Assembly: GCA_965644265.1 (NCBI GenBank)
Contig: OZ286461.1
Coordinates: 106,144,001-106,208,000 of the forward strand
Source of the DNA: Glycera tridactyla
Taxonomy: Eukaryota
Length of the DNA: 64,000 bases
Direction: 5' to 3'
The translations under genes were made by a program, and so were the position numbers. Shown here piece by piece: positions 1 to 48,779 of the stretch. A model generated the notes under the pieces. The model searched no databases, was not told the DNA's origin, and was given only the letters and a program-made list of their open reading frames with translations. Each line of letters opens with the position of its first letter. The stretch's first letter is position 1.

Positions 1-1032
1 TATGCTCCTGTTTTTAAGGATTTTAGCCCTCTAAAATAAAAATAGAAAATAAATAAAATGATGAAAAATGCACAATTGTTATCATGAAATAAGTAAAATT
101 ATTTCGTGATTTTTGATATCCTTCTTTCCTTATTACTCCTTCTTTAAAGAAGACTGCCCCAGCTGTCTCCATGTCAATTGAATGTAAAACGTCTCTGTCT
201 TGTGTGTACCTCCTTTTCGAAGCCGCTCAACCCGAGTAATTTATTTTGATAATACAACAATAAATATATGAATAAATATGTGAATAATACATGCATTTTA
301 TTCACAACATGTGTACGGCATGTCTCAAATCATCGGGTCCAATATTCATACAACATCAGAATTTCACTCTTCATGCGTGTTTGTAATCGTGGCGTATGTA
401 TTATGCGTGTATACGTGTTTTCATGCTGTATATAACCATTAATAATAGAATTCACACACTACAAATATATTAACCAAATCCGACAATTTTGTAATTTATC
501 AAGAGTGTACCCCGTCGACACATCGATTTTTCACCAAGACACCGCCTAGAATCCGCGACCGTGATTGGTCTATTCGGATTTGCGCGTGTGTCCGTGGGGG
601 TAACTTCTTCAAAATTAAAACAATGTACTTGGATTCAATAAAAAACGCCGATTATGTGGCAAGTTGTCGAGAAACATTCCATATATTTGGTATTTCCTAA
701 CAGAATCATTTTCACACTGCAACTATCATGATAATGATGACTCAATCCTCTTATGGTAGCTGCTAAACTCATTCGTACGCAGCTGACTCATATGTTTGCC
801 GTCATCACCCGAGAATAAAACTAATGGGTTGTTTGGCACACAACATCTGTAACACATTCATGGTTTCACTTTCGTGACTAATGTTTATACCTCGTGTCAA
901 ACAAGGGTATCTTTGGTATATAAACGTCAATGTAGATTCAATTACCATCTGGGGTAGTTTATCAATATACCCTACCAAACTTTTCGTGGTATAATACCCC
1001 AAGTTCGGAGACTTGAGTCACACTTTGCAGCC

Positions 1033-1302
1033 ATGGATTGCCATTACTGTTTGCTGAAGCTGATCCTTGCTGGATTCCATAACGAAACTTATGTCCATTG
1101 CGTAAATGAGACATCTACGCCTACTATGCCCATTCTATCTACTGAGCATCCTCACATGGACAACGACCAGTCTGTTTGGATATGGGCAATAATACCCATA
1201 CTACTATTGCTGATCATGTTCGCCCTCGTCACATGGCGGGCGTATAGGAAGTTTACTATGGGTAAGTACCCTTTTTGCCAGTTAAAGCTATCAAATAAGT
1301 AA
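1033..1302 (+). CDS. Antisense small single-pass membrane protein (89 aa)
   Basis: Kozak-like GCCATGG; two N-E-T sequons; TM VWIWAIIPILLLLIMFALVTW followed by RAYRK; TATATAAA at 917-924; donor G|GTAAGT at 1261/1262. Confidence 0.55.
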   Translation: MDCHYCLLKLILAGFHNETYVHCVNETSTPTMPILSTEHPHMDNDQSVWIWAIIPILLLLIMFALVTWRAYRKFTMGKYPFCQLKLSNK

Positions 1303-1348
1303 CAATAAGTAACTATAAGTACTGATTACCCCTAATCTGTGTTTCTGC

Positions 1349-1780
1349 ATGTGTGTTATCTGGCATGGTGAATGTGATATGGCGGGTATAATCGTACTTG
1401 TATATTCAGACTTCTTCAGGATTTGCTTCCGAACTGATCTGACTACTAGCCAGTCGTTCGTACTAATTGTCATTGAAACTATCACCGTTACGAGCGGCTC
1501 GTGCCAATGTCTGTGTTATGACTTGTATATCGGGTTTCACGCGTTACCAGTCAAGCGTGTAATCGTAGTCGCCCAGACCTTGCCTGGCTTTCCCGCCGTC
1601 CGTAACATGATCGTTTCACTCTGCGCTGGTTCACTAGTCTCTAGGCGTTGTCGCCGAAACCATTGGATCAGCTTCGTTATAGTAGTAGAAGTCATATCCG
1701 GTATTTATTTTCTTCGCGCTTGCGAGGCGAGCATGATGAATGCTGAATCGGTCCCCACGGCTGTTCGTAACTCCATTTAG
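1349..1780 (+). CDS. Second antisense ORF downstream of env (143 aa, doubtful)
   Basis: Open for 143 codons and followed by AATAAA at 1939-1944. The V/I/C-rich composition resembles a shadow frame, but the in-register minus frame has 7 stops. Confidence 0.25.
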   Translation: MCVIWHGECDMAGIIVLVYSDFFRICFRTDLTTSQSFVLIVIETITVTSGSCQCLCYDLYIGFHALPVKRVIVVAQTLPGFPAVRNMIVSLCAGSLVSRRCRRNHWISFVIVVEVISGIYFLRACEASMMNAESVPTAVRNSI

Positions 1781-1956
1781 CCGAGGCGATCGTTAGGGCG
1801 ATGTTTGCATTGCTCGCCCAGCAGCATCTCCCCATGGGAATAAGTATTAGAACATGTATCTCAGTGGTAATCTATTTCTCGATCGTATTTCAATGGAAAC
1901 AATTGCTTGTGAAACAGAATAAGTTTTAATGATAAGATAATAAATCGTAAATCCTT

Positions 1957-2904
1957 CTATTGTGGACTAATAGCAGGCCTATTAGTCGTTTGCACCGCGA
2001 TTTCCCGTCTTTCCATTATTTCGTAAGAATCTTCATTATCAAGAGATGGTGGTGGTATATTCCTTAGAGCTGTTACTAGCGGCTCTATCGCTCGCGGATT
2101 TGATATGGGTGGTGGTAATGGCCTTTTCGCGAGTTTGTTCCAAGTAGTCTTCTTGTATCTGTATAGAAACCAGGCAGCTATCAATATAGCCGCTAGCAAC
2201 GATACTGCTATGACTAGCACAATGAGTATCGTTAACCAGAGACTTCTCTGCTTTCTCTGGTCGGTGTGGATCAGATTAAATGGATTAAGGGTCCTCCCTT
2301 TTAATATTTCGTCCATCGCTTTATCCAGATCCATTCCGAAAGATATCATATCATCTAGGCCCAACCTTTCATCTTCTGTAGTAATATCCAAGGAAGGTAT
2401 TGGGATGCTATCTATTGATTTCGCATACCTGTTCTTCGTGTATTCTACTAATAAATCCATATTTAGCAGTCTCGATAATGCTGGGAAATTTACAGGAAAA
2501 TCGATTTCCTGCGACATCTGTCTGTCTGTACATCCATGTATAATGGGTGATACCGATAATGTCCTTCCTTGTCCGTCTGTCAACGTAACCTGACATGCAC
2601 AATCCTGGCTGACCACACAAAACCTACATCCTTCCCTAACCATTAACGCTCTTGTTGGACAACCTATGGAAATGGTTTGAGCATTCATGACCAGCAACCT
2701 GCCTGGAGCCAATGAATGCACATCCATTATATCTTCGTCCATTTCCAGTCGGTAGGAACAGTGTTTTGTAATCTTTTCGTTGTCCCCAAGATATAAGCTC
2801 ATGGCGCATGTAGGGTGGTAGGTATCATGGATGGTGGTCATTTGTTTGCAATGCACTGTGTGTGATTTAGTACATTGGATGAAGTCCATTTCACTCATTT
2901 CCAA
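1957..2904 (-). CDS. env: Envelope glycoprotein, C-terminal part (Cys-rich ectodomain, TM anchor, cytoplasmic tail); continues the upstream env ORF in the -1 frame
   Basis: Cys pattern CTKSHTVHC...TCAMSLY...HC...CRFCVVSQDCAC; TM LWLTILIVLVIAVSLLAAILIAAWFLY followed by RYKK. Adding one T to the T4 run (2903-2906) gives ...NTRFLEMSEMDF... and one ~910-aa Env from ATG 4691. Confidence 0.9.
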   Translation of the reverse strand: MEMSEMDFIQCTKSHTVHCKQMTTIHDTYHPTCAMSLYLGDNEKITKHCSYRLEMDEDIMDVHSLAPGRLLVMNAQTISIGCPTRALMVREGCRFCVVSQDCACQVTLTDGQGRTLSVSPIIHGCTDRQMSQEIDFPVNFPALSRLLNMDLLVEYTKNRYAKSIDSIPIPSLDITTEDERLGLDDMISFGMDLDKAMDEILKGRTLNPFNLIHTDQRKQRSLWLTILIVLVIAVSLLAAILIAAWFLYRYKKTTWNKLAKRPLPPPISNPRAIEPLVTALRNIPPPSLDNEDSYEIMERREIAVQTTNRPAISPQ

Positions 2905-4748
2905 AACCTAGTATTGTCTATGGATATACCAAAAATCTTGTTGGGGGCCACAGGCCTAGTGACCAAACTTGCATTTAATGTGGCAGGTACGCTGAAAGTG
3001 GTTAGCTTGAATAGTTTGAAACTCGCATCCGTTGAACGTAGAGGGACCGTGATATGTATTACCAGCTTATTATTTCTCCATGAGTATTCTGGCTTTGCAT
3101 ATTTATAATACGATGCTGGCCTCATATTCGCAACCCTAAACACAATAAATTCCTTCCTTACATGCTCATCAAGGTCCACTAATGCCTTAAATAAGGTTTC
3201 CTCCGGTATTATTGTGGAAGATAGCTCATTTCGTAGCAAAGAACGTAGGCCGGTCATGAAATTGTTCATCTCCCTTTCTACGATTGTTAGGTCCTGTAGT
3301 AGGGTCGCTATCATTGAAACTGCGAATGATGTATATTGTACACTCGCATATAGTCTTTTGTTCAGATTTTCTATGATTGTTGAAAATTTGGTGTCCACAT
3401 GGTTAATAGCTTCTCCCATCTTTATGAGATGTTTGTTGTTGGTTTGTGCGAGTGCAACCGCTTGTTTTTGGAAGGTAATCACTTTGTCCGCCATATTAAA
3501 CTGATTTTCTTCGAGTGTTTTCAATGCCTTGTGTATGTGTTTAGCCTCATCTTGGGTTACGACGCCAAATAGAGAATTCAGAATTTTTCCTCCAAAATTG
3601 AACAATCCTCGTTCCTTCCTTCTTCTTGTATCATCCGGATTGTATTCTGTGGCTTTAACTTGTTCTACGATTATTCCCATTTCTCGTATGTCGGTTTCGG
3701 TTGTTTTCATGGCAAATACTACTGAGTCAATCAGTTCGATGAAGTCCCTATCGTCTGGTTTGACTTCCGAAGTCTCTCGTCTTTGCCTTCTCTCCTGCCT
3801 TTGTTCTGAAGTCTTGATTTTATTCAGTTGATTTACGTAGTATGTACGTAGCTCATTTGCCATGGATTGGAATCTCTCTGTCAAGTAGTGAACATGACCG
3901 CATATATAGCTTCCTTGCGATTCCCATTCAGAAGTACCTTTCGTTCCATGTCCTTTGCATTTGCCATCGTATGCATGCCTTATGTTTCTTAGGCTTCTCT
4001 CAGCTTCTTCTAATGTAACATTCCATCTTCCCCTGATAACTTCAGCTGGCGTTATCCTAGGATCATAGGGGTTTGTAATATTTTCTAATTTAGCTAGGGC
4101 TGTCCCAGCTTCCCATATACCCCTCATAATGATATTGTCCTGTCTGGGAGTATCTTCGACGTATAGAGCTTCCTTTAATGTATTCAAAGCTGCTTTGAGT
4201 GAGGTGATGGACCTTCCCATCTTGATTTTCTTCATTGTCGTAGATCTCTTCGTTCTGATTCGTGCATTCGCACCGTATTCCCATCGTGCGTTAGTCATCA
4301 TCTCATGTAGTAGATCCATGGATATGGCGGTTCTGGTTGCCTTGATTTCGTTCAAAATTCCTTTTAGGTACATACATGTTTCGTTGTTTGTGTCTTCTTC
4401 AATGTTTTCACCCAGACACTGATGCCATTGAAGGCACTCTCCATCCTGGTTTGTCGCACATTGAGTATGGTTGTTCACGTCTGTGAACATAGTAGGGATG
4501 TTCACAATGAACATCAGGTTGAAGGTAGCTGTAGTAGGGATATAGTTACCCTCTATAGGTGAAAAGTGAGCCCCATAGTTTAGCCTTTCAACCAGATTCA
4601 TTCCAGTTGAATCAAGAAAATCCTGGTTTTGGTCCACTTGTTGAGCATTTCCCATAGCTCCACACCACGAGAGTATCATAAGTAACATCATCAAAGAGCA
4701 ATCTTCTCCAATGATTCGTCTTTGGTGCCGTCTTGGTTTAATCACCAC
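2895..4748 (-). CDS. env: Envelope glycoprotein, N-terminal ~600 aa (class I fusion protein, baculovirus F/errantivirus Env type)
   Basis: Signal-like MMLLMILSWCGAMG (first ATG 4691); basic site followed by fusion-peptide-like RRRKER|GLFNFGGKILNSLFG; heptad region; ends at a TGA caused by a frameshift. Confidence 0.9.
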   Translation of the reverse strand: MVIKPRRHQRRIIGEDCSLMMLLMILSWCGAMGNAQQVDQNQDFLDSTGMNLVERLNYGAHFSPIEGNYIPTTATFNLMFIVNIPTMFTDVNNHTQCATNQDGECLQWHQCLGENIEEDTNNETCMYLKGILNEIKATRTAISMDLLHEMMTNARWEYGANARIRTKRSTTMKKIKMGRSITSLKAALNTLKEALYVEDTPRQDNIIMRGIWEAGTALAKLENITNPYDPRITPAEVIRGRWNVTLEEAERSLRNIRHAYDGKCKGHGTKGTSEWESQGSYICGHVHYLTERFQSMANELRTYYVNQLNKIKTSEQRQERRQRRETSEVKPDDRDFIELIDSVVFAMKTTETDIREMGIIVEQVKATEYNPDDTRRRKERGLFNFGGKILNSLFGVVTQDEAKHIHKALKTLEENQFNMADKVITFQKQAVALAQTNNKHLIKMGEAINHVDTKFSTIIENLNKRLYASVQYTSFAVSMIATLLQDLTIVEREMNNFMTGLRSLLRNELSSTIIPEETLFKALVDLDEHVRKEFIVFRVANMRPASYYKYAKPEYSWRNNKLVIHITVPLRSTDASFKLFKLTTFSVPATLNASLVTRPVAPNKIFGISIDNTRFWK

Positions 4749-4770
4749 TGCAACACATAAAGTGGGGATA
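4748..4770 (-). promoter_or_regulatory. Candidate env splice acceptor
   Basis: Minus strand CCCCACTTTATGTGTTGCAG|TGGTG lies at the start of the env frame. Spliced env mRNAs are established for gypsy-type errantiviruses. Confidence 0.5.
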
Positions 4771-5354
4771 GGGACCCATAAATTCCTGTGCCTAGGCCGA
4801 CTTAATTGACAATATAATGGATATTATAATTGTCTAGAACTTTTCTAACAAACTGCGATGTAATGTAGGGCGTTGTTATACAACAAGGATAACCATGAAT
4901 TATTTTATATAATAATTTATGATTTCTACTGTGTGTTTGGATCCGCTTCAATGGAATGTCGGCCTAATGCGGCATTTTTACAGGTTCCCTATTTTTCCCT
5001 ATTTTTCATAGGCGTTCGCCCTTCTTCTTTGCTCATTGACTTTATTGTTTCTTTCTGTGGCAACCGCTCCGGCTGACCACTACCCTTTGCGCGTCCGCAT
5101 TCCTACAAGTTGGTGAATTCACACCTTGACTTGTATATTTTCTGATACTCTCTCGTAATTCCCTGAGCTCCATTTGCTCGAAGCTGCTCCATCATTTGTT
5201 AATATGGGGGAGGTATGGGGTTACCTCCCTCTTCTCCCACCTCTTGGGCTCCCGTGGGACCTTCAGGCTTATTTCCTGGGGTTGCTCATCCCCCTTTACC
5301 CCTGATTTTCACCACTTGTGAATCTTACTCCGAAGAGTCAACATCGCATTTATC

Positions 5355-5975
5355 ATGTCTTCCCAAAATATTGTAGTGGCTTGTATCAGCCAGTTTTGTT
5401 CGAATGGGATAGTGGGTGTCCACTATGACGAAGAGCGAAGGGAGCTTCGCATTTATAGTGGAAGGGTCTCTACTAGTTACGACGACCACATTCTGGACGA
5501 AATTCGCAATTTCATCAGAACAAGGGAGATAGTGGGGTACTACTTTGATCAGGAACAATGTCGTGCCTCTCTAATCGTTAGGTTCAATGGTGGCATTGTT
5601 CTCAACAATGCCAGAGCCGGTGCCTATAGGCACAACGATGGGTGCTCCAATTCTTCTGAGGGGCACGAACATGAGCCTGATAGCCATGACCCACCATCTC
5701 CCCTTGTTTCGAATCAGGATCCCAGAAGGGTTCCTGTTCGAATGTGGCCGAATTTCGTTCACAGAAATTCAGCACCACGTATAGTGGTGCGTCCCAACAA
5801 CTTGTCCCGTTCTGAGGGACGCAACATCGTTGGTCGTGAGGTGAGTGTCTCTTTTATACTCCTTTTTGTCTTTATTATCGTGCTTTCAGCTCCTTCAGCA
5901 TCTTCCTCTTCTCTATACGAGCATTGTAGTCTCTTATGTGTTCTATTGGCACGATATCCGCCCGTAGCCATGTAG
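5355..5975 (+). CDS. Antisense accessory ORF of the retroelement (206 aa, unknown function)
   Basis: ATG-initiated. Internal repeat IVGVHYDEE / IVGYYFDQE with several third-position synonymous differences in this frame. Consensus donor GAG|GTGAGT in phase 0 after codon 162 (5840/5841). Confidence 0.5.
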   Translation: MSSQNIVVACISQFCSNGIVGVHYDEERRELRIYSGRVSTSYDDHILDEIRNFIRTREIVGYYFDQEQCRASLIVRFNGGIVLNNARAGAYRHNDGCSNSSEGHEHEPDSHDPPSPLVSNQDPRRVPVRMWPNFVHRNSAPRIVVRPNNLSRSEGRNIVGREVSVSFILLFVFIIVLSAPSASSSSLYEHCSLLCVLLARYPPVAM

Positions 5976-8900
5976 GCTTCTTGTCGCGCCACTCGCACAT
6001 GTATGAAACCTTTCCATTCTTCGTTGTGGACGTTATGACTTTTACTAGTTTCGACATGTCCGGTGCGCTTGCCTTGCTATCATTCTTCGTTTTGAAGCTG
6101 ATTTCTGGATCCATACTGACTGTATCCGTGTTTGACCTATTGTTTCTTTGCGCATGTTCTCTATTCACAAATGTTCTGCCTCGCTTTCGTCGCCTGGTTA
6201 CAGGCGGTATGTTTGGAAGGGTAGAAGTTTCAGATTCCACACTTTCTTTGTCTTTTTCTCTTCGCGATTCTGTATTTTTCTCTCTTTCTTCTGTATTTTG
6301 CGTATGTCCAATTGTCCGCTCCGAATTTGCATTCTGTCCGTCCTTCTTGGTCCTTTCGGTCCCTCTCAGGGTAGAATCAGCCTCCGGTGTGAATTTCTTC
6401 AGTCTGTTTTCTGGTATTAGATGTTTGAGGTTATGGTTGTGGATTTGCAGTGAATGAAATCCTGGCTTTGGTGTTGAGACTATGATGAAAGGCCCTTCAT
6501 ATTTCTGACTGACTTTGTATTGAGAGGGAACCCTAGGGGTTACTATTTTTGCCCAAACCATATCTCCTGGCTTGAAACCTTTGTATGTAACCTTCTTGGC
6601 TGTGTCATGACGCATTTTCATGTTCTCCGCATTTTTCCTGGCATTTCTGGCTGCTATGTGTCGTATAGCCATTAAATCAGGCCATATTGAAGGGAAAACT
6701 TCTTGTGGTGGGACATCTCGAATTAATGGAGGTTCTTTCGTTATGTCACCGGAGAGGGTTGGTTCCAGACCATACATGATTTCGTAGGGTGCAAATCCAT
6801 GAGATTTGATGGAAATATCATGAGACCAACGAACATGAGGCAAAAATTCCGTCCATGATTTTTCAGGAAACTCCATCATACATGCTCGTAGTGAGCAGAG
6901 AATACTAGAATGTAGTCGTTCTACTGCTGCATTGGCTTGAGGGTGCCAGGAGGTTATATACTGTAGTTTGATACTAAATTGTTCAGCCAAGTATTGGAAG
7001 GTTTTAGACGTGTGAGCTGCTGCTCTGTCTAATACGACCACCTTCGTAGGTCCAAATCGTTGAATCCACATCTTCATAAAATATGTAGCCAGGGTTTCAG
7101 CTTTTTCATTTGGAATGGTTTCAATCTCAAAGTGTTTTGAAAATCTGTCTACGATAACAAGTACTTTCAGTTCCTTATCTTTCGTTGGTGCAACCTTTAA
7201 GACATCCATGTGGATTATTTCAAATAATGAAGCTGGTGGTCTTAATAAAAGGGGTGTCTTTTTATTATTGTAGTCTCTTTTGGCTTGACCGCAGGCTTTG
7301 CAACTAGCCACAAATTTAGCCAAGTCTTCGTACATTCCTGGCCAGTAGAATCGTTGCCTGACGATTTGTAGTAGACTGTTGAAACCTCTGTGGGATCCAT
7401 GTGTTCCATGGTGAAATAATGCTGCTATTTCATACCTCCTAACATGTGGTAAGTATATCTGGTGAAATGTTTTATTGCTCGTATTGTCGTGGAATTTTCG
7501 GCATAAAATTCCGGAATTTGTAAGCAAATATTTGTCCTCCTCTGCCATGATTTTTCTTGCATGGGCAAGAGTCTCTGGCAGAGACTTATTCAATTTATAT
7601 TGATATAGGAATGACGAGTCTTTGTCAGTGGCTTGTTCCAGCGCCATTTTTCTTTCGTCTATCATATATTCTGTATACAACTCGATGCAAGAAGTTTCAT
7701 CCAGTAGTAAGGCTTCCTCGTATGAAATATCATCTGAATCCTCCAGGCCCAGTTGTTTTTCCTCTTTGTCGTACGATGAATCACCCTCACTGTCGGCTAT
7801 GTTTTCGATATCCGTCTCGGACATAACGTTCCCATCAGCGTCTTCCTCGCTGCTGGTACATGATTCTTCCGCGTGGCGGCGAGCGTCTCGCTGGAGGCCG
7901 GTTTTGGCGGGAAAGGTGGGCGTGGCACTTTTCTCTCTTTGACCATGTTGTTTATCCGTTGTGTCGAACATATCGAATCGCCGCTCTGTGGCTTCACACT
8001 CAGATGAATCTATTTCATTGCTGGGCTTGTATGGCTTTGTCCTGATTCCCATTAAACACTCCTTCTTTGTTACTGGTGATTCCAAGAATTCTGTAGTATT
8101 GATAAGACAATGGTTGTCACCTTCTTCATCCATTGATAACATGGGTTGTTCTACGTAGGTTATTCTAGATAAGGTGTCAGCTACAACATTTTCTTTGCCT
8201 GGTTTGTGCAGTACACGGATATTGAATTTATTCAAAAACATTTTATAACGAAAGAGCCTGCCGGTTTTAGTGGCCAGATTGTGTAAATATACGTTTGTCA
8301 AATTATCAGAAAATACTGTTATGTCTGTTTGAGAGCCCAACATTAATTCACATTGTTTCAATGATTCTACGAGTGCCAGGGCTTCTTTCTCATTTGAATG
8401 GTAATTTGCTTGTGATGGATTTAATGTTTTTGATATGAATGCTACAGGCCTGGTTACGTTTTCCTCGTCTTCCTGTGATATAACTGCTCCTACTGCTCTA
8501 CCGCTAGCATCTAGGTATACTGTAAATGGCTTGGCAGGGTCAGGATAGTATAATACCGCATTTTGGAGAAGGGAGGTTTTTATATTGTCTAATGCTTCCT
8601 GGCATTCCTCGGTCCAGATAAATTCATGATCTTTCTGTAGGAGTTTGTTTATTGGTGCAGCTATGGCCGCATATCCTCTTACAAATCTGCGATAGAAGTT
8701 GAGCGTACCCATCAACTGTCTGACTTCTTTGACATTATTAGGGGCTGGGAGCTTTATTAACGCTCCTAATTTGTTAGGATCGGCCTTTACCCCATCTTTG
8801 TTGAAAATATATCCCAGATATTTAACCTCGGATTTCATGAACATGGCCTTTGATGGCGATATACGTAGTCCCACTTGTCTAAGTCTCCACAGAAGTTGAC

Positions 8901-10812
8901 TCATAACTTCTAAGTGTTTTTCATATGTAGGGGTTGTAACAATAATATCGTCCATATATGATGTGACGTATTTTGAGTCCAAAGTGGCTAAACACCTAGA
9001 AATGATGCTTGAAAATATTTCTGGGCTTGAATTTAGGCCCATAGGTGTCTTTGTAAAGGAGTATTTTGCATTGCTGGTATTTATTGTACAAATATCAATA
9101 CTATCTGGTGCCAATTGAACTGCATAGAATGCTGAAGCCAGATCGACTACGGAGAAGACCTTGTTTTTCCCTGCCGCTAAAGTGGCTATAATATCGTTAA
9201 TCGTCGGTATTGGTGATTTTGAGGGAACTATCATTTTGTTCAAATTGGAAAAATCAACCACTAATCTGGGTTTGATGGGTTTACCATCATCATCATACTT
9301 GTATACTACGAAGGTGGGTACACCCAACATAGAATGTGATGGTTTCAATATTCCTGCCTCTACTAATTTTTGAATTTGTTCATTCAAGTCCTTCTCCTGC
9401 TGTGGAGGTAACTTGTATGCCCTCTGATTCACAACTGTTGCTTCTGGCTTTAGTTCTATTCTATGATACACATCTTGTATGACTGCCAACTCGCTCAGGT
9501 CTACGGCAAATGCCTCTCTGTTATTATCTAGAATAGACACTAATTCTTCTCTATACTCGTCAGCCGCAGGTTCCAACGATAATATATCGTCCCAAACGAT
9601 AGGTTTGAAAGTTCGAATCCTAGTCTGGTTCGAAATGTCTACTTCTGTTTGAGTTGATATTTCTCTACTGTTATCGTTTTCTTCCTCCACAACGAAAGGG
9701 GCAGAATAGTCCTGCCGTGGCCATAATACTTGTAATGAGTTTATTTGTTCACCGCTACATGGAAGTGGCGCTGATGGTCTCGCTAATGCTGACCGTTCGC
9801 CTATGTATACAGAACCTGGCATTCCTCTCTCATTAGATGCAGGTCTGGCCACGTTGGCTTGCGCAATGGTAATCCGCGCATCTGAGTCTATATATACGTT
9901 CTTTGAAGTTGGATTCGAAACAGATACCAAGAATGTATTCTTCTGGCTTCTGAAGGCGATTCCCGGAACCGTTGATAGTTGTGGGGTGTTTGTGATTATT
10001 TCATACGAAATATCTAAGGAATCTGGTTCTTTCATGTAATTTGGGGTTATTGTATTCTCACTATCAGCAGTCATATCGATATAACAAGAAATCATTGCGA
10101 TCTCCATAGGTTTCATAATCGTGGAATCTGATGCTCTCAATGTATACGAGCATTCTTTTACCGTTGTCATCAATACGCTGGTGATACCTCCTTCTAAATG
10201 CAATCTGCTCTCTGAATAGTCAATTTTCGCCGCAGTTTGCTGGAGAAATGGTACACCTAAGATGACTTGTAAGGGTATGGCTTCCACTACGAGGAATCTG
10301 ACTAATATTTCCTTACTATTGATAGTTATAGGAATGCTCACTGATCCTATCACTTTCATTTTCTGTGCCTGCGCATCGTATAGTTCTACCTCGTGTTTCG
10401 TGTCTATCTCTCCTCTCAAATCTAACTGTTTCAGCATGTCTTCTGTGATAAGATTAGTTGTAGCTCCTGTATCTACCATAGCCGCTATTTGTGTATGTTT
10501 GATATATATTTTAATAGAGTTAAGTGTACCCAACTTCTGACGTATTCGATTCCTATCACCTGTAGAGAGCGTCAATGATGAATTAACCGTTTCTCTTTTT
10601 GTTATGTTATCATCATTTATTCTTCTGACACTATACACATGCCTACTACTGTTTTCTACATTACTGCCACTACTAATATTTTTCTTATAAAATTTCACTA
10701 CAAATTCTAACAGATCGCAATGATCAGGGAGCGTATGCTCACAATCTATCCCTAATGGACAATCTACCCAATTAAATGCACTCGTGACCCTATTTATGAC
10801 ATGCCCTCTATC
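5875..10812 (-). CDS. pol: Pol polyprotein: aspartic protease, dUTPase-like domain, RT, RNase H, integrase, chromodomain-like C-terminus
   Basis: Uninterrupted frame of 1607 aa in the track plus 38 open codons back to the gag TAG. Motifs: VDTGA (PR), VVDLASAFY/TPMGL/YMDD (RT), DASG...NEKEALA...SDN...VADTLSR (RNase H), H-H-CKAC zinc finger, D-D-E triad (HMDV/VLDR/VERL), KYEGPF. Confidence 0.97.
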   Translation of the reverse strand, partial: DRGHVINRVTSAFNWVDCPLGIDCEHTLPDHCDLLEFVVKFYKKNISSGSNVENSSRHVYSVRRINDDNITKRETVNSSLTLSTGDRNRIRQKLGTLNSIKIYIKHTQIAAMVDTGATTNLITEDMLKQLDLRGEIDTKHEVELYDAQAQKMKVIGSVSIPITINSKEILVRFLVVEAIPLQVILGVPFLQQTAAKIDYSESRLHLEGGITSVLMTTVKECSYTLRASDSTIMKPMEIAMISCYIDMTADSENTITPNYMKEPDSLDISYEIITNTPQLSTVPGIAFRSQKNTFLVSVSNPTSKNVYIDSDARITIAQANVARPASNERGMPGSVYIGERSALARPSAPLPCSGEQINSLQVLWPRQDYSAPFVVEEENDNSREISTQTEVDISNQTRIRTFKPIVWDDILSLEPAADEYREELVSILDNNREAFAVDLSELAVIQDVYHRIELKPEATVVNQRAYKLPPQQEKDLNEQIQKLVEAGILKPSHSMLGVPTFVVYKYDDDGKPIKPRLVVDFSNLNKMIVPSKSPIPTINDIIATLAAGKNKVFSVVDLASAFYAVQLAPDSIDICTINTSNAKYSFTKTPMGLNSSPEIFSSIISRCLATLDSKYVTSYMDDIIVTTPTYEKHLEVMSQLLWRLRQVGLRISPSKAMFMKSEVKYLGYIFNKDGVKADPNKLGALIKLPAPNNVKEVRQLMGTLNFYRRFVRGYAAIAAPINKLLQKDHEFIWTEECQEALDNIKTSLLQNAVLYYPDPAKPFTVYLDASGRAVGAVISQEDEENVTRPVAFISKTLNPSQANYHSNEKEALALVESLKQCELMLGSQTDITVFSDNLTNVYLHNLATKTGRLFRYKMFLNKFNIRVLHKPGKENVVADTLSRITYVEQPMLSMDEEGDNHCLINTTEFLESPVTKKECLMGIRTKPYKPSNEIDSSECEATERRFDMFDTTDKQHGQREKSATPTFPAKTGLQRDARRHAEESCTSSEEDADGNVMSETDIENIADSEGDSSYDKEEKQLGLEDSDDISYEEALLLDETSCIELYTEYMIDERKMALEQATDKDSSFLYQYKLNKSLPETLAHARKIMAEEDKYLLTNSGILCRKFHDNTSNKTFHQIYLPHVRRYEIAALFHHGTHGSHRGFNSLLQIVRQRFYWPGMYEDLAKFVASCKACGQAKRDYNNKKTPLLLRPPASLFEIIHMDVLKVAPTKDKELKVLVIVDRFSKHFEIETIPNEKAETLATYFMKMWIQRFGPTKVVVLDRAAAHTSKTFQYLAEQFSIKLQYITSWHPQANAAVERLHSSILCSLRACMMEFPEKSWTEFLPHVRWSHDISIKSHGFAPYEIMYGLEPTLSGDITKEPPLIRDVPPQEVFPSIWPDLMAIRHIAARNARKNAENMKMRHDTAKKVTYKGFKPGDMVWAKIVTPRVPSQYKVSQKYEGPFIIVSTPKPGFHSLQIHNHNLKHLIPENRLKKFTPEADSTLRGTERTKKDGQNANSERTIGHTQNTEEREKNTESRREKDKESVESETSTLPNIPPVTRRRKRGRTFVNREHAQRNNRSNTDTVSMDPEISFKTKNDSKASAPDMSKLVKVITSTTKNGKVSYMCEWRDKKPTWLRADIVPIEHIRDYNARIEKRKMLKELKAR

Positions 10813-12522
10813 CTAGTGAGAAAAAGGGTTATTTGACCCTGTGTTTCCTGTCGGCCTTGGTCCCTGGGGAGCGTAACCCTGGGAATAGCCTTGGGAATAT
10901 CCTTGAGAATATCCCTGCTGATTTTGCCCATTATATTGTTGGCCTTGAGAATTAAATTGTCCCATGGTCTGGGTCTCTCTTACTCTATTGATGGCTTGAG
11001 CCATAAATCCGTCATGGTGCTGGGGATTAGTAATGTTGACATACGTCTTCATTACTTTGAAACAATTATTTGATGTATGCCCCGGCTTCAAACATGCTTC
11101 ACAGACAGGTGTATTTTCATCTATTTTCTTATTATAATTATTATATGTTCCAGGCCCAGGCGTGCCCCAGGAGGGAGGATCGGACGACGAGTTCGAACTC
11201 TGAGTCAAACTGGTGAGTCTCTTTTTACAGTCCCTGGCTATATGGCCTATCTTACCACAATGGTAGCATGTGATTTTTCTTCTAGTTTCTTGGTCCCCTG
11301 TTGGTCCATTATTTATTAACTCCCTTATTGCGTTCAAAAGTTCTTTGTTTTCGGGAGGTTCTTTCTCCTGTTTCTGAGGGACCTTTTGGTCCTCTTCCCT
11401 TTCTTTTATTATTGGTGTAGTTGATATGGCTGCAACTTTGTCCGTCAATTGCTGCATTTGTTCTGGTAAACTGGATAGTGCCTCTGAACTGGGCAATCTT
11501 TTATCCAATTTATCCATTACTACACTGATAGTCGCATCCATTGTCGACTCCGTAGCTATTTCTTCTAAATTTCCAGCGGTTTCTGCTGCTTCTAATACTG
11601 AATCCACGGTTAATGGATTTGCCATCAACATGTAGTTTTTAGCAACTGGGTTCAACCCAGATAATATAATACTTTTGTATTCACCAAATTGCGCTTGATT
11701 AAAGGCTTGTCCTTGTTTCAATTTGAATAAAAACCTACATTTATTCACTATTCTCATACAAAATTGTTTAGGTGTTTGTGCTGCACCCTGTTTGGTTTTA
11801 TACAATTTAGCCCTAAAGGCAGGCTCACTGTTTCCTTGTACACAGTATTCTGCAAGAAATCTTCTTTCTATTTCCTCGAAAGAAGTGTCTTTTGTCACAT
11901 GGACAGTGCAGTACCATTGCTTCACTGTGTCACTAAGGTTAAATGGAAAGTGTCTGACCTTTTCATAGTCAGACAGTCCGTGTAATGCACAGTATTCATT
12001 GAATAAGTCCAACCATTCAATGGGATTGTTTTTGGCTTGAAATTGCTGTACCTTGACTAGACTCTTATCCTTCACTACGAAGGTATGTTGAGCTTGAGGC
12101 ATAAAATTCGGTGGTTGTGAAGAAGGTGGGCCATGGATGGCCATGTTATGTTCCACCAGTCCTGTTTTGGGACGGGTACCTGCCCCTAATGGGACGTCCC
12201 TAGGCGTGCTTGTCCTTGCACCAAAAGATGTGTGATCAATGTTTGACAAAAATGGATCATAAGTTTCTGGTATATTATATGTGTAGCGAGGGGGAGGGTA
12301 ATATGCATTGTCAAAAGAATGTAATTCACCTGTTCTTTTTTGAGATGGGTTCCTTCTCGTGAATTCCCCTGGCGTAATTCCTTGATTCATATTCTCCTGT
12401 GTCATAATCCCTGTATTTCTGCTTTCTTGTAGTGTAATCCCTGAATTTCCTTTTTCTTGTGGTGTAATTCCTAAATTCCTGTTTCCCTTTTGTTTCAGAG
12501 CCTTCGAAAGCCGTCTATCCAC
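10813..12522 (-). CDS. gag: Gag (capsid-like domain plus two CCHC zinc knuckles)
   Basis: 569-aa frame. Retrotransposon-gag-like segment NNPIEWLDLFNEYCALHGLSDYEKVRHFPFNLSDTVKQWY; knuckles CYHCGKIGHIARDC and CEACLKPGHTSNNC. The track start is GTG, so the true start is uncertain. Confidence 0.92.
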   Translation of the reverse strand: MDRRLSKALKQKGNRNLGITPQEKGNSGITLQESRNTGIMTQENMNQGITPGEFTRRNPSQKRTGELHSFDNAYYPPPRYTYNIPETYDPFLSNIDHTSFGARTSTPRDVPLGAGTRPKTGLVEHNMAIHGPPSSQPPNFMPQAQHTFVVKDKSLVKVQQFQAKNNPIEWLDLFNEYCALHGLSDYEKVRHFPFNLSDTVKQWYCTVHVTKDTSFEEIERRFLAEYCVQGNSEPAFRAKLYKTKQGAAQTPKQFCMRIVNKCRFLFKLKQGQAFNQAQFGEYKSIILSGLNPVAKNYMLMANPLTVDSVLEAAETAGNLEEIATESTMDATISVVMDKLDKRLPSSEALSSLPEQMQQLTDKVAAISTTPIIKEREEDQKVPQKQEKEPPENKELLNAIRELINNGPTGDQETRRKITCYHCGKIGHIARDCKKRLTSLTQSSNSSSDPPSWGTPGPGTYNNYNKKIDENTPVCEACLKPGHTSNNCFKVMKTYVNITNPQHHDGFMAQAINRVRETQTMGQFNSQGQQYNGQNQQGYSQGYSQGYSQGYAPQGPRPTGNTGSNNPFSH

Positions 12523-12528
12523 AACGTT

Positions 12529-12885
12529 TCATACGGACTCCTCATCGTCACCATCATCACTGCTTAGATCCCCACCATCCTCTGCTTCCGTGTCCTCTTC
12601 ATCGTCTTCTTCAGCCGCTTTTTCCCGATCTTCTTCATTTTGCCGCTTGCCAACGTCTTCTGCAGCTTCTTCGCCATCTTTTCCTGCAATTTCTTGATTT
12701 TTGGACAATTCTTTCCCTGCTTTCTTCGTATTTTCGTCATCAGACATGCTTGCCTGCGCTGCTTGACTTTTAAATGTTACCTCGCCGCTACTATCACCTT
12801 CCAGATCACCTAGCTCTCTTCCTCCAGCCCGAACGATCGTCGTCGAACGTGGCGTGTCCGTATACGTTTTTGAAGACTGTTCCAT
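12529..12885 (-). CDS. Acidic 118-aa ORF upstream of, and in frame with, gag (separated by one TGA)
   Basis: ATG start, D/E-rich (EEDDEEDTEAEDGGDLSSDDGDDEESV*); continues in frame as *NVVDRRLSK into gag. Confidence 0.45.
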   Translation of the reverse strand: MEQSSKTYTDTPRSTTIVRAGGRELGDLEGDSSGEVTFKSQAAQASMSDDENTKKAGKELSKNQEIAGKDGEEAAEDVGKRQNEEDREKAAEEDDEEDTEAEDGGDLSSDDGDDEESV

Positions 12886-13187
12886 ATCATACCCGGATTC
12901 TCCACCATATATTATGATGGGCTACCGGTCTGTTGTAGTGTATGCTGCGTGGGGCGGTCGAAGGTACGGATCACCAAATTGCTCGCGTTCTCCTACGTTT
13001 CCTCCCGATGCCAATATGCTTGCAATAAACGATGTGGAGTCCACTTCTTCTTCTCGGTTTTCACTATGAATGACTAGTGTTAGAGTGTCACTATAATTCA
13101 CAAGAGTTCCTGTACGTGGGGGTAAGGTGTATACGAAGTGTAACACAACTCGCTCAAATAGTGATGTATAAAGCAGGCCGTTAAGCT

Positions 13188-13724
13188 CTACTCAGTGAGG
13201 TACTGGATCTTCATGGAGTCGATGTCGTAGCCGTCTGTCTGGTAGTCCGTCCCCTTCCTTGCCCCTGGGTATAACGTCTGGTAGTGCCCGAATTGCAGTA
13301 CCCCGATTTCTCGATTTTCTGGGGATTTTATAGTAAAGTGAGGTATGCCGTTTCTAAGCATATCTCGGCCAATTCTGACGTGTGAGTGGCATGAGTCGTA
13401 TTGGTGACTAATAAGGTGTCCGACATGATCGGGAGGTGCATTCCTCACCGTCTGGGACCATTTTTGGGTTCCTGGGACCCGGCAGTGCCGAGATTTTGAC
13501 CTACAAAACCTACGTCACTTGACTACAGTAAATAGGTCAATTTTGACGTAGGACCGGCAATTTGGCTTGTTCAATGCCTTATATAGAATGTTCTTGACCA
13601 TTTTCCAAGAAATCCGGTGGTTCTGGCGCTTGTAGCTCGTATGATAGCCGCTACTGCGCTTTGAACGTGGTACCCCCTCTAGGAAGTATTGGTCTATTAA
13701 TATTTGCAGCATCAGACTGGCCAT
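13188..13724 (-). pseudogene. Upstream leader ORF(s) of the retroelement, interrupted by a TGA at 13515-13517
   Basis: Track ORFs 13515-13724 and 13188-13448 share a frame and the gap between them is open. The distal part has coding-like codon usage (GTDYQTDGYDIDSMKIQY). Confidence 0.3.
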
Positions 13725-13810
13725 GGGCTAAGCCGCGCTCAGTCTTTTGCCCGCTAGCTTTCGTTCCAATCGGACGTATGTATTGCTAGTTCTACAGGAA
13801 TCATATATAT

Positions 13811-14663
13811 NNNNNNNNNNNNNNNNNNNNNNNNNNNNNNNNNNNNNNNNNNNNNNNNNNNNNNNNNNNNNNNNNNNNNNNNNNNNNNNNNNNNNNNNNN
13901 NNNNNNNNNNNNNNNNNNNNNNNNNNNNNNNNNNNNNNNNNNNNNNNNNNNNNNNNNNNNNNNNNNNNNNNNNNNNNNNNNNNNNNNNNNNNNNNNNNNN
14001 NNNNNNNNNNNNNNNNNNNNNNNNNNNNNNNNNNNNNNNNNNNNNNNNNNNNNNNNNNNNNNNNNNNNNNNNNNNNNNNNNNNNNNNNNNNNNNNNNNNN
14101 NNNNNNNNNNNNNNNNNNNNNNNNNNNNNNNNNNNNNNNNNNNNNNNNNNNNNNNNNNNNNNNNNNNNNNNNNNNNNNNNNNNNNNNNNNNNNNNNNNNN
14201 NNNNNNNNNNNNNNNNNNNNNNNNNNNNNNNNNNNNNNNNNNNNNNNNNNNNNNNNNNNNNNNNNNNNNNNNNNNNNNNNNNNNNNNNNNNNNNNNNNNN
14301 NNNNNNNNNNNNNNNNNNNNNNNNNNNNNNNNNNNNNNNNNNNNNNNNNNNNNNNNNNNNNNNNNNNNNNNNNNNNNNNNNNNNNNNNNNNNNNNNNNNN
14401 NNNNNNNNNNNNNNNNNNNNNNNNNNNNNNNNNNNNNNNNNNNNNNNNNNNNNNNNNNNNNNNNNNNNNNNNNNNNNNNNNNNNNNNNNNNNNNNNNNNN
14501 NNNNNNNNNNNNNNNNNNNNNNNNNNNNNNNNNNNNNNNNNNNNNNNNNNNNNNNNNNNNNNNNNNNNNNNNNNNNNNNNNNNNNNNNNNNNNNNNNNNN
14601 NNNNNNNNNNNNNNNNNNNNNNNNNNNNNNNNNNNNNNNNNNNNNNNNNNNNNNNNNNNNNNN
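13811..14663. other. Assembly gap (others: 15534-15705, 22038-22528, 22890-23096, 43024-43222, 60023-60219)
   Basis: Runs of N. Confidence 1.
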
Positions 14664-45900: not shown

Positions 45901-46708
45901 TAGTGCTAGATTGCAGTTGTTTTAGTGAACTTTGATGAACCAGTCGGCAATACTAGATACGTAGAGTAAAGCCAGTGGCTAGAGATGTATCTTTTTAGAG
46001 TAGCAGTCACTGCTGTAGGATGAAGAGGGGTTGAAGAATGGTGCTGGGTCCCTGTAATTGGTCTATCTAGTGTAAAGGATATAATGAGACGTCAGATGGC
46101 TTACAAATGATCTAGCAGTCCAGTCTGCCGCCTATGTATTATTAAAAAGGTCTGCTCATTAAGCCATCCAGACTGTCATCTTCTCCATCAGTCAGATTAT
46201 CCTCGAGGGTCAATTTACATAATGCCGCACTGGTTCTCATTGGTATCATCCATGAACTGTAAAAACCTGGAATTTGCATGCATCAGGGGATCCACCAAAG
46301 GATTCATGATCCCTAGTTTCAAGATTTGGTAAAAGTCCGCCCAGATCTAAAAACCTATTGTATATCCAGGGCAGTAATGCTCACTGGACTTAGTCCGTCA
46401 CATGTCTTCATTATGCCGAAATGGAAGTATTTCTATCAGACATGAGTGCAAGTTTCGAGTCAGGTCCACAGTTAAATATGCCATCTTGAGGTTTAGCATG
46501 TTTATGACAGTCGGGTAGAGGTGTGTTTGAACGGTCATATTCTTCCAATTGACATCCTTTTATCATCATCATCACCTTGTGTTTAGGAGTTGTGTGACTG
46601 ATGTCAGCAGGGGACAGAATATTCGGCTTTAATCGACTAGGTACAACCGAGTTGTCTGGGTACTGATGAATTTAAATCACGAGGCTCTCTGGAATGGGAT
46701 AAAAAAGC

Positions 46709-47528
46709 TGAACATCCAGCGACATTGAGAGCTTCTGAGTGGGTCACTCTTCAACAATGTCCCATATCAACATCAGGAGCTGAACATCCAGCGACATTGA
46801 GAACTTCTGAGTGGGCAACTCTTCAACAATGTCCCATATCAACATCAGGATCTGAACATCCAGCGATATTGAGAGCTTCTGAGTGGGCCACTCTTCAACA
46901 ATGTCTCATATCAACATCATGATCTGAACATCCAGTGACATTGAGAGCTTCTGAGTGGGCAACTCTTCAACAATGTCCCATATCAACATCAGGATCTGAA
47001 CATTCAGCGACATTGAGAACTTCTGAGTGGGCCACTCTTCAACAATGTCCCATATCAACATCGGGATCTGAACATCCAGCGATATTGAGAGCTTCTGAGT
47101 GGGCCACTCTTCAACAATGTCCCATATCAACATCAGGATCTGAATATCCAGCGAATTTGAGAACTTCTGAGTGGGCCACTCTTCAACAATGTCCGATATC
47201 AACATCAGGATCTGAACATCCAGCGGCATTGAGAGCTTCTGAGTGGGCAACTCTTCAACAATGTCCCATATCAACATCAGGATCTGAACATCCAGCGACA
47301 TTGAGAGCTTCTGAGTGGGCCACTCTTCAACAATGTCCCATATCAACACCAGGAGCTGAACATCCAGCGACATTGAGAGCTTCTGAGTGGGCCACTCTTC
47401 AACAATGTCCCATATCAACATCAGGAGCTGAACATCCAGCGACATTGTGAGCTTCTGAGTGGGCCACTCTTCAACAATGTCCCATATCAACATCAGGATC
47501 TGAACATCCAGCGACATTGAGAGCTTCT
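46709..47528. repeat. 72-bp minisatellite, ~11.4 copies
   Basis: Unit TGAACATCCAGCGACATTGAGAGCTTCTGAGTGGGCCACTCTTCAACAATGTCCCATATCAACATCAGGATC; few substitutions and no indels seen. Confidence 0.97.
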
Positions 47529-48779
47529 AGTCTCAGCCCGATGATCCAGAGCTGGTTTGCGTTTTAGCCACCCACAACTGAGACCATTTCACTGAAGAAA
47601 TAAAAAAGAGCTCAGAGAGATCAAAAAGAGGTGAAGAAAAAGATACAGGGGTATTGGACAGGCATAAATCATGAATATATGATAATAATTAAGTGACTTT
47701 GGATGGATTCCTGACATGGTTTCCCTCATATTCCTAAACAAATGGCAAATGTCAGAACCGAGTGAAATCACTGGTATCTTTCGGAATCCTGTATGAGGCC
47801 AGGTCAATGATGATGAACTATCAACCGAAAAGGGAACGTGCAGATGCACTAACAGAAACAATAAGAATGGCAGCTAGTCAGAAGATCTGATTGACAGGCG
47901 AGTAAGAATTACATCAGATTTGTATTCTGTCATCTGCTCATCTCATCACAATGGAGAGAATTCCGAGTGTGATATTGTCTCCACAGTTACAGAGATATTT
48001 ATGATACAGGAAACATGTGTACACGTGTAAGGAGATAGAGAATCAATATATCCAAATTATATACATATAGGACTAGGGATTTTTTTAGAACGAGCTCCAT
48101 GAAAAGTTTGTACGTCTCCACTTCACAAGTTTGTGAATAATGTATATAGGACTTTGTATAATCCTAATGCAAAAGATATCTGCTCAACCTGTAATAGCCT
48201 CTGTTATTCAGCAAAAACTGACCAATTTTAATTCAAATTTAAATTAATCTTCTCGGAATTCCTCGCAATATCTCAGGTGTTTGTGTTCTTTCAAAAAGAA
48301 ATCTATGTTGTTTAATTGTTTCATTCATGTTTGCATTTGCATTTGATCTGACTCGGTCAATGCGAATCGTGAATAAAAGTTTCTCAATCAAATTCAATAA
48401 AATGTATAGACACTCAGTTGTGCAGACTATACCCTAGGACATCTCCGATCAGTATGGCATACACGACGACTATGACACTAGGAGATTCATTCCAATTACC
48501 GCCGCACCAATGAATATTTGATATGCTCCACAATACTGAGAAGCCGGCATATGAGAGATGAGCTCGGTCTAGAAAAAACACCTAGTCATTAGGCTTGCTG
48601 AACACTGAGCTGAACTTGATATCCGCGCAATAATGAATGTAACGGAAAGATCCACACTGTGTCGAGTAATTGCTTCTCGGAAATCCAACCATAGGTAGGT
48701 CGTATTACCACATACGTTGAGAGTCTATTGTCCTATCACAATGAACACGAGTATTTCTCAACGACATTCATGTTGGACT

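Follow-up and report, generated by a model that had tools for sequence, protein, structure and literature searches.

A constrained antisense coding exon in the pol-env spacer of an env-carrying Ty3/gypsy element

Does a reading frame that lies antisense between pol and env of a retroelement encode a protein and, if so, what could this protein do for the element? The question is raised by a 64,000-nt stretch of the Glycera tridactyla genome (contig OZ286461.1; hereafter the window), the start of which falls within a minus-strand LTR retroelement. The first-pass annotation had described a 206-aa plus-strand ORF in the pol-env spacer, and this ORF is present, with its ATG at 5355 and its stop at 5973-5975. 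Here, we compared it among copies of the element. Purifying selection acts on bases 5355-5840, which code for protein on the antisense strand of the spacer. The gene was previously unannotated, is common to two element families and encodes an orphan protein.

The element and its sister family

The element is an env-carrying Ty3/gypsy retroelement of the errantivirus type, with gag, protease-RT-RNase H-integrase, an F-type env, an LTR pair and a primer-binding site (Table 1). The primer-binding site adjoins the 5' LTR and starts with TGG, which we take to match tRNA-Ala. The LTRs of the window copy are 99.6% identical, and the 3' LTR ends at window base 3 (loci L061 and L062). In this copy env is split into two frames by a frameshift near 2900 and gag carries a private in-frame stop at 12529-12531; the plus-strand ORF is still intact. 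Among 40 other copies of the same family (family A), 23 have an env frame open over at least 900 aa. Family A gave 491-606 first-look candidates, depending on the query, and it is young, its LTR pairs being 98.9-99.9% identical. A single TAG (10813-10815, minus strand) splits gag and pol, which share one frame, in 10/10 copies, and this suggests stop read-through.

Table 1. Features of the element and of the antisense spacer gene (window coordinates)
Feature	Position	Strand	Remark
Antisense coding exon of 162 codons, from ATG to donor	5355..5840	+	Intact frame; shared silent/replacement changes 108/23
N-terminal globular domain, residues 1-95	5355..5639	+	Predicted alpha-beta-beta twice, pLDDT 58
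First IVG..D.E segment	5409..5435	+	Predicted strand 1
Second IVG..D.E segment	5529..5555	+	Predicted strand 3
Arg/Pro-rich C-terminal block, residues 123-162	5721..5840	+	Conserved; follows looser linker 96-122
Initiator-like motif	5312..5317	+	TCAGTT, or TCACTT in other copies; putative function
Phase-0 splice donor GTRAGT	5841..5846	+	GTRAGT in 89/90 copies; conserved in 20/20 further ones
Likely intron	5841..5929	+	Length 81-116 nt, depending on the copy; 5' part rich in T and in indels; putative 3' end
Best candidate acceptor TAG	5927..5929	+	Only candidate in common with the sister family; partly forced by pol codons
Alternative acceptor CAG/TAG	5896-5898	+	YAG in 86/90 copies
Membrane-protein exon, 76 codons	1033..1261	+	Behind env; phase-1 donor at 1262
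gag, CCHC knuckle	10813..12921	-	ORF list and Pfam
pol: protease, RT, RNase H, integrase	5875..10812	-	Stop at 5875-5877
env, baculovirus-F type	1957..4823	-	PF12259, E=1e-9, above cut-off
5' LTR	12907..13835	-	About 929 nt; its last bases are N in the window

A search with an F-type env profile returned further element families. Family B, a sister family with a related antisense ORF, comprises 189 candidates, whose env is 44% and whose integrase is 72% identical to that of family A. Its antisense ORF has 176-179 codons, occupies the same pol-env position and aligns with family-A residues 11-86 at 21% identity (E=3e-5, pairwise). It is intact in 46/53 copies, its maximum-likelihood (ML) omega is 0.195 (about 0.2), and it ends at a phase-0 GTRAGT in 51/53 copies. 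We regard it as a homologue of the spacer ORF, on a sequence match that is modest and leans on the common position. No homologue was detected in L221, a relative from another assembly with 58% integrase identity, a pol-env spacer and a decayed env; its spacer holds an 88-codon antisense frame (L221:9165-9431, minus strand) without a profile match. The domain profile found no match in four other F-env groups, for several loci of which the sequence available upstream of env spans only about 1.5 kb.

Coding selection between the start codon and the donor

We compared 90 distinct genomic copies of family A (18 duplicate loci were dropped) and 20 further ones. As 80 of these 110 had been picked by similarity to the spacer protein, which inflates intactness and lowers omega, the least biased sample is formed by the 30 copies picked by DNA. 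Sister copies keep the frame, without the stops or frameshifts that would speak against a gene: codons 1-162 are intact in 106/110 copies, that is, open in 88/90 without any indel and in 18/20 of the further ones, where 9-nt linker indels stay in frame. The DNA-picked copies are intact in 29 cases out of 30. The constrained unit is, however, 162 codons long and not 206, since the full 206 aa are found in only 27/90 copies. Codons 163-206 overlap the end of pol, show an omega of about 1.0 and contain many frameshifts.

Over codons 1-162 dN/dS is far below 1. Changes common to at least two copies comprise 108 silent and 23 replacement ones, while 27% silent is expected (p=4e-40); in the 30 DNA-picked copies the shared counts are 21 and 7 (p=1.5e-7). 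ML omega for the exon is 0.23 and 0.115, the value for 29 DNA-picked copies being 0.23 with private decay included, and the fit was poorer by 29 log units in a run meant to hold omega at 1. Private (singleton) changes are near neutral (33 silent, 67 replacement; singleton omega 0.74 and 0.49). Since shared changes bear the mark of selection and private ones are much nearer to neutral, selection acts through replication of the element and not on the host: it acted during element replication and was relaxed after insertion. The constraint is distributed unevenly along the protein. Residues 1-95 have 75 silent and 7 replacement shared changes and an ML omega of 0.07, a value biased low because the copies were picked by this protein; the integrase core of nearly the same set gives 0.117. 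The counts are 8 and 9 for the linker (96-122), and 25 and 7 for residues 123-162. Variation lies almost wholly at third codon positions, a pattern that begins at the ATG and stops at the GT of the donor; past 5840 all codon positions vary and dozens of indel types occur.

Could recent amplification, an RNA structure or a frame on the sense strand produce such a pattern without any gene? In favour of this, the family copies are young, and a low score is also obtained for the mirror frame, which has the same third positions. That frame, however, contains 8 stops and loses the discriminating test, in which changes silent in the plus frame only fall at 17 of 77 possible sites and those silent in the mirror frame only at 3 of 95. 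As had been claimed, the in-register sense frame is interrupted as well (2 stops over 5355-5840, and 5, 13, 8 and 8 in the four remaining frames). Moreover, upstream flanking spacer frames show omega values of 0.55-2.0, and selection also acts on the 21%-identical homologue of family B. We thus consider the absence of a gene extremely improbable. The spacer ORF is almost certainly a real gene, as the first-pass annotation had proposed: the frame is kept, dN/dS is low, the donor appears to be selected, and a distant family has a gene in the same place. Six-frame scans of 9-10 copies per family found no further plus-strand coding signal in pol, gag or the LTR.

In pol itself, silent sites are near-invariant over window positions 5968-6057, where 1/14 fourfold sites vary against roughly half elsewhere. 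Folding of this stretch was no better than that of shuffles (z=-0.89), and the invariance is absent in family B.

Start codon, splice donor and the antisense transcript

The ATG at 5355 is kept in 110/110 copies. The spacer between an upstream AG and this ATG measures 16, 17 or 18 nt in 14, 85 and 5 of the 110 copies, respectively, and these 16-18 nt have no coding pattern. Because this spacer differs in length and does not look like coding sequence, translation likely starts at this ATG. A promoter of its own within the pol-env spacer is also likely, judging from two motifs. In family B, 51/53 copies have a TATAAA about 80 nt upstream of the ATG, between flanks that have diverged. In family A the corresponding place lacks a TATA box, and the copies carry the initiator-like motif of Table 1, which presumably matches the initiator consensus. 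On the antisense strand of the LTR, an AATAAA (13024, plus strand; also in the L231 LTR) occurs in 9/9 family-A and 11/12 family-B copies, and the sense strand of the family-A LTR has none. It is possible that this signal ends long antisense transcripts.

At the other end, GAG/GTGAGT was read at 5840/5841, in phase 0 after codon 162, as had been noted. The donor is GTGAGT in 81, GTAAGT in 8 and GTGAAT in 1 of the 90 copies, is conserved in 20/20 further ones, and varies only among consensus forms in both families. Genome-wide, the exon-end pattern, which covers part of the family, precedes GT in 208 matches and a non-G base in none; a processed retrocopy was rejected on this count. Indels upstream of the donor are in frame and keep its phase, while frameshifting indels appear from within 10 nt after it. 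Judged by this variation among copies, the site evolves as expected of a splice donor under selection. Other plus-strand GTRAGT sites, at 7449 and 11213, are conserved but can be explained by pol or gag codons. Over window positions 1-13810 GTRAGT occurs 5 times antisense and 0 times sense, where base composition predicts about 7 on each strand.

The acceptor side is less clear-cut. The TAG at 5927-5929 is kept in 90/90 and 18/20 family-A copies, and a homologous TAG 59 nt after the donor of family B in 52/52 copies. An acceptor at 5889 was rejected as a universal one, since a stop follows after two codons in 12/41 copies and the site is lost in a subfamily. All three candidate acceptors (5889, 5898 and 5929) lie antisense to the last codons of pol and are therefore partly forced; among comparable pol codons, 10 of 22 show the same invariance. 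No downstream frame past these candidates shows coding constraint, and the length of the open frame after the 5929 acceptor differs among copies (family A: 18 to over 189 codons; family B: 0 to 78). Within the pol linker, a candidate exon at 7839 was rejected because 9/49 copies have a stop at codon 6.

These observations bear on whether the gene is spliced at all. If it were not, translation would read through to the first stop via a free tail, and the GT motif would serve another purpose, e.g., U1 binding. That no constrained second exon was found agrees with this, and so do the read-through products of 178-207 aa available in 88/90 copies. However, a six-base consensus donor in phase 0 marks the end of constraint in both families, indels before it preserve its phase, and frameshifting ones start within 10 nt past it. 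An unspliced gene is therefore quite unlikely, and splicing of the antisense transcript is probable on these sequence grounds.

A different route for the transcript is offered by the second antisense ORF, which lies behind env. In family A this ORF falls into about five strongly divergent types, in which Cys, His and Trp residues are invariant, and it encodes a Cys motif, an N-glycosylation sequon, one hydrophobic helix and a basic patch. ORF and donor are intact in 42/47 copies, and the sequon lies in the ectodomain in 42/42. Its pN/pS is 0.20-0.26 for pairs at least 50% identical and 0.54 below that. A frame from 1410 was rejected as its second exon owing to shared frameshifts. With sORF2/FAST-like fusogens the ORF shares one membrane helix followed by a basic patch; in those proteins an N-myristoylation motif is found, missing in some members, and the ectodomain has about 30 aa (PMC11952523). 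Here, in contrast, residue 2 is Asp or Ala and the ectodomain has about 48-52 aa.

The spacer exon might encode the cytoplasmic part of a membrane protein, with 1033-1261 spliced across env, or act as a particle or envelope co-factor. Both ORFs are antisense and constrained and have consensus donors at their ends, and in the window copy an AG at 5336-5337 would accept the phase-1 donor in frame. Against this stand the interval from AG to ATG, which occurs in three phases and lacks a coding signal, and the ATG conserved in 110/110 copies. Furthermore, family B has the spacer ORF, but a membrane-ORF query against L151-L164 gave a single chance-level hit (E=4.6). An in-frame fusion of the two ORFs appears unlikely on this evidence, and so does the membrane or co-factor explanation as a whole.

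The spacer protein and its possible role

Residues 1-162 contain neither a signal peptide nor a membrane segment. A single-sequence fold model was unusable (pLDDT 36). The model of residues 1-95 from a 21-sequence alignment of both families (pLDDT 58, pTM 0.52) shows helix-strand-strand twice, at a 40-residue offset, and on its basis we assign to this domain, with medium confidence, a two-fold alpha-beta-beta structure. A duplicated motif had been noted in the first-pass annotation. Its two 27-nt segments begin at 5409 and 5529, at a distance of exactly 120 nt, and show the three silent third-position differences claimed; such silent divergence is poor evidence when taken alone. The model supports a two-fold arrangement, with units 40 residues apart, but the sequence signal of the repeat is marginal and missing in the sister family. 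The best off-diagonal score reaches p=0.021 for residues 1-95 and p=0.084 for residues 1-162, while the family-B protein gives p=0.975 and lacks the IVG..D.E repeat (1000 shuffles each). The linker is loose and rich in Ser, Pro and acidic residues.

Searches did not name a family for the protein. Foldseek returned no hit at E<=0.001. The best structural match of residues 1-95 is 2g0i (Z 4.4, rmsd 3.6 over 75 residues, with a model of pLDDT 58), and weak fold matches to the DUF464 protease fold and RNA-polymerase-alpha-like domains do not rise above background. A search of solved structures gave E=0.31 at best. Pfam has no match for the spacer protein of either family, including TRP28 (PF04195) and bZIP. 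A phmmer search of 1.84 billion protein representatives produced one hit, to a tandem-repeat protein, which we judged spurious; word-index searches with the single protein, env and alignment A1, limited to near lengths, were blank, and a metagenome scan with alignment A1 matched 0/140 stretches. Nor did database searches find a sequence match to the Cer1 protein CERV, which is sense-encoded.

What could such a protein do? The N-terminal domain is 95-100% identical within a family and 21% identical between families. Near-identity within and such distance between families fit a co-evolving partner within the element better than a host target. As the partner seems specific to the protein's own family, we favour a family-specific self-regulator of the element's RNA or LTR over an antagonist of silencing or a membrane or particle co-factor, and give this reading a probability of roughly 50%. 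Beyond the coding constraint and the donor, we infer every step of the following scheme. A promoter inside the pol-env spacer would drive the antisense mRNA, and a single splice at 5841 would join it to a short last exon that is free of constraint and overlaps the pol end. The product, a soluble protein of about 165-190 residues, would use its folded domain to recognise something specific to its own family. Like Rev, CERV or HBZ, it could then control export or expression of the intron-containing genomic RNA. The charge of the N-terminal domain (11 K/R and 12 D/E, so no net basic charge) speaks, if anything, against nucleic-acid binding by this part.

The same gene could instead encode an antagonist of host silencing, acting on small RNAs or chromatin. 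From what is known of piRNA biology, an antisense mRNA would escape small RNAs directed at the sense strand. Family A is young and abundant, with its 491-606 candidates, and an orphan accessory protein selected at the level of the element fits such a role. However, proteins of this kind usually change fast, while the domain is near-frozen within the family (omega 0.03-0.07), and no match to any known suppressor was found. We thus regard silencing antagonism as unlikely, and self-regulation as the better reading.

Self-regulation has a precedent in an invertebrate LTR element: CERV of C. elegans Cer1 is a novel accessory protein made from a spliced mRNA and needed for export of the genomic RNA (PMC10309623), and it served as the model for the role proposed here. 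With regard to strand, position and presence in most copies, the spacer gene resembles additional ORFs of plant Ty3/gypsy elements. In maize Grande (gene23), rice RIRE2 and the Retand TRP28 ORFs, these are antisense, lie downstream of pol, occur in most copies and encode orphan proteins (PMC7264820, PMC11963269); Grande gene23 is described as nuclear, with a promoter of its own (PMC7264820). The spacer gene, in contrast, matches neither TRP28 nor any other Pfam family, is placed between pol and a fusion-type env, stops at a conserved donor, and is accompanied by a second antisense ORF, for a membrane protein, behind env. HTLV-1 HBZ and the other deltaretroviral antisense proteins are likewise antisense accessory products of an enveloped retroelement, and HBZ has spliced forms (PMC10186651). 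The spacer protein differs in having no bZIP, a predicted alpha/beta fold and an origin outside the Retroviridae, and its promoter is probably internal, judging from the family-B TATA, rather than in the 3' LTR as for HBZ/APH. The analogy to HBZ and Retand drawn in the first-pass annotation thus holds for position and strand but does not extend to the domains, bZIP and TRP28. LINE-1 ORF0 is also antisense, with its own promoter and donors and no fixed downstream exon (PMC4859970), but has 70 aa and lies in the 5' UTR of a non-LTR element. A further antisense gene after pol is brtn of Boty, a fungal Ty3/gypsy element of Botrytis.

Errantiviruses with an F-type env have the same gag-pol-env order, LTRs and primer-binding site (PMC13524379). 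The word 'antisense' is absent from the main text of that paper, the supplements of which may list the element. Its screen accepted a pol-env gap of at most 1000 nt, while the gap in family A is about 1050 nt or more; screens that limit this gap may skip such elements. Our literature search, which covered main texts and few subscription papers, found no antisense gene described for an animal env-carrying Ty3/gypsy element, and antisense accessory genes have so far been described from plant and fungal LTR elements and deltaretroviruses. Standard annotation misses the spacer gene, which is constrained about as strongly as integrase and yet is without a relative among 1.84 billion representatives. 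The two families and their hundreds of natural copies make the function of retrotransposon antisense ORFs testable. It is quite possible that this animal enveloped Ty3/gypsy lineage became 'complex' in a retrovirus-like way independently, with an antisense unit, a two-fold alpha/beta orphan regulator and, in one family, a highly polymorphic membrane glycoprotein. If so, the glycoprotein behind env may control cell entry or superinfection.

Several minor observations concern the architecture of these elements. TA repeats lie at both outer ends of the element (L061:4050-4080, L062:1830-1850) and also abut several other copies and family B. An acidic, variable insertion of more than 100 residues between RNase H and integrase (window 7700-8060) is common to family A, family B and L221, and a 58-aa block at the end of pol, without a Pfam match, is 53% identical between the two families; one errantivirus clade of PMC13524379 bears a chromodomain in this position. 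Three loci (L125, L127 and L165) are family-A derivatives without pol, in which env follows directly after the start of gag; L165 retains only the first codons of the antisense spacer ORF. Finally, window positions 46564-47655 hold a tandem array with a 72-nt period that is unrelated to the element.
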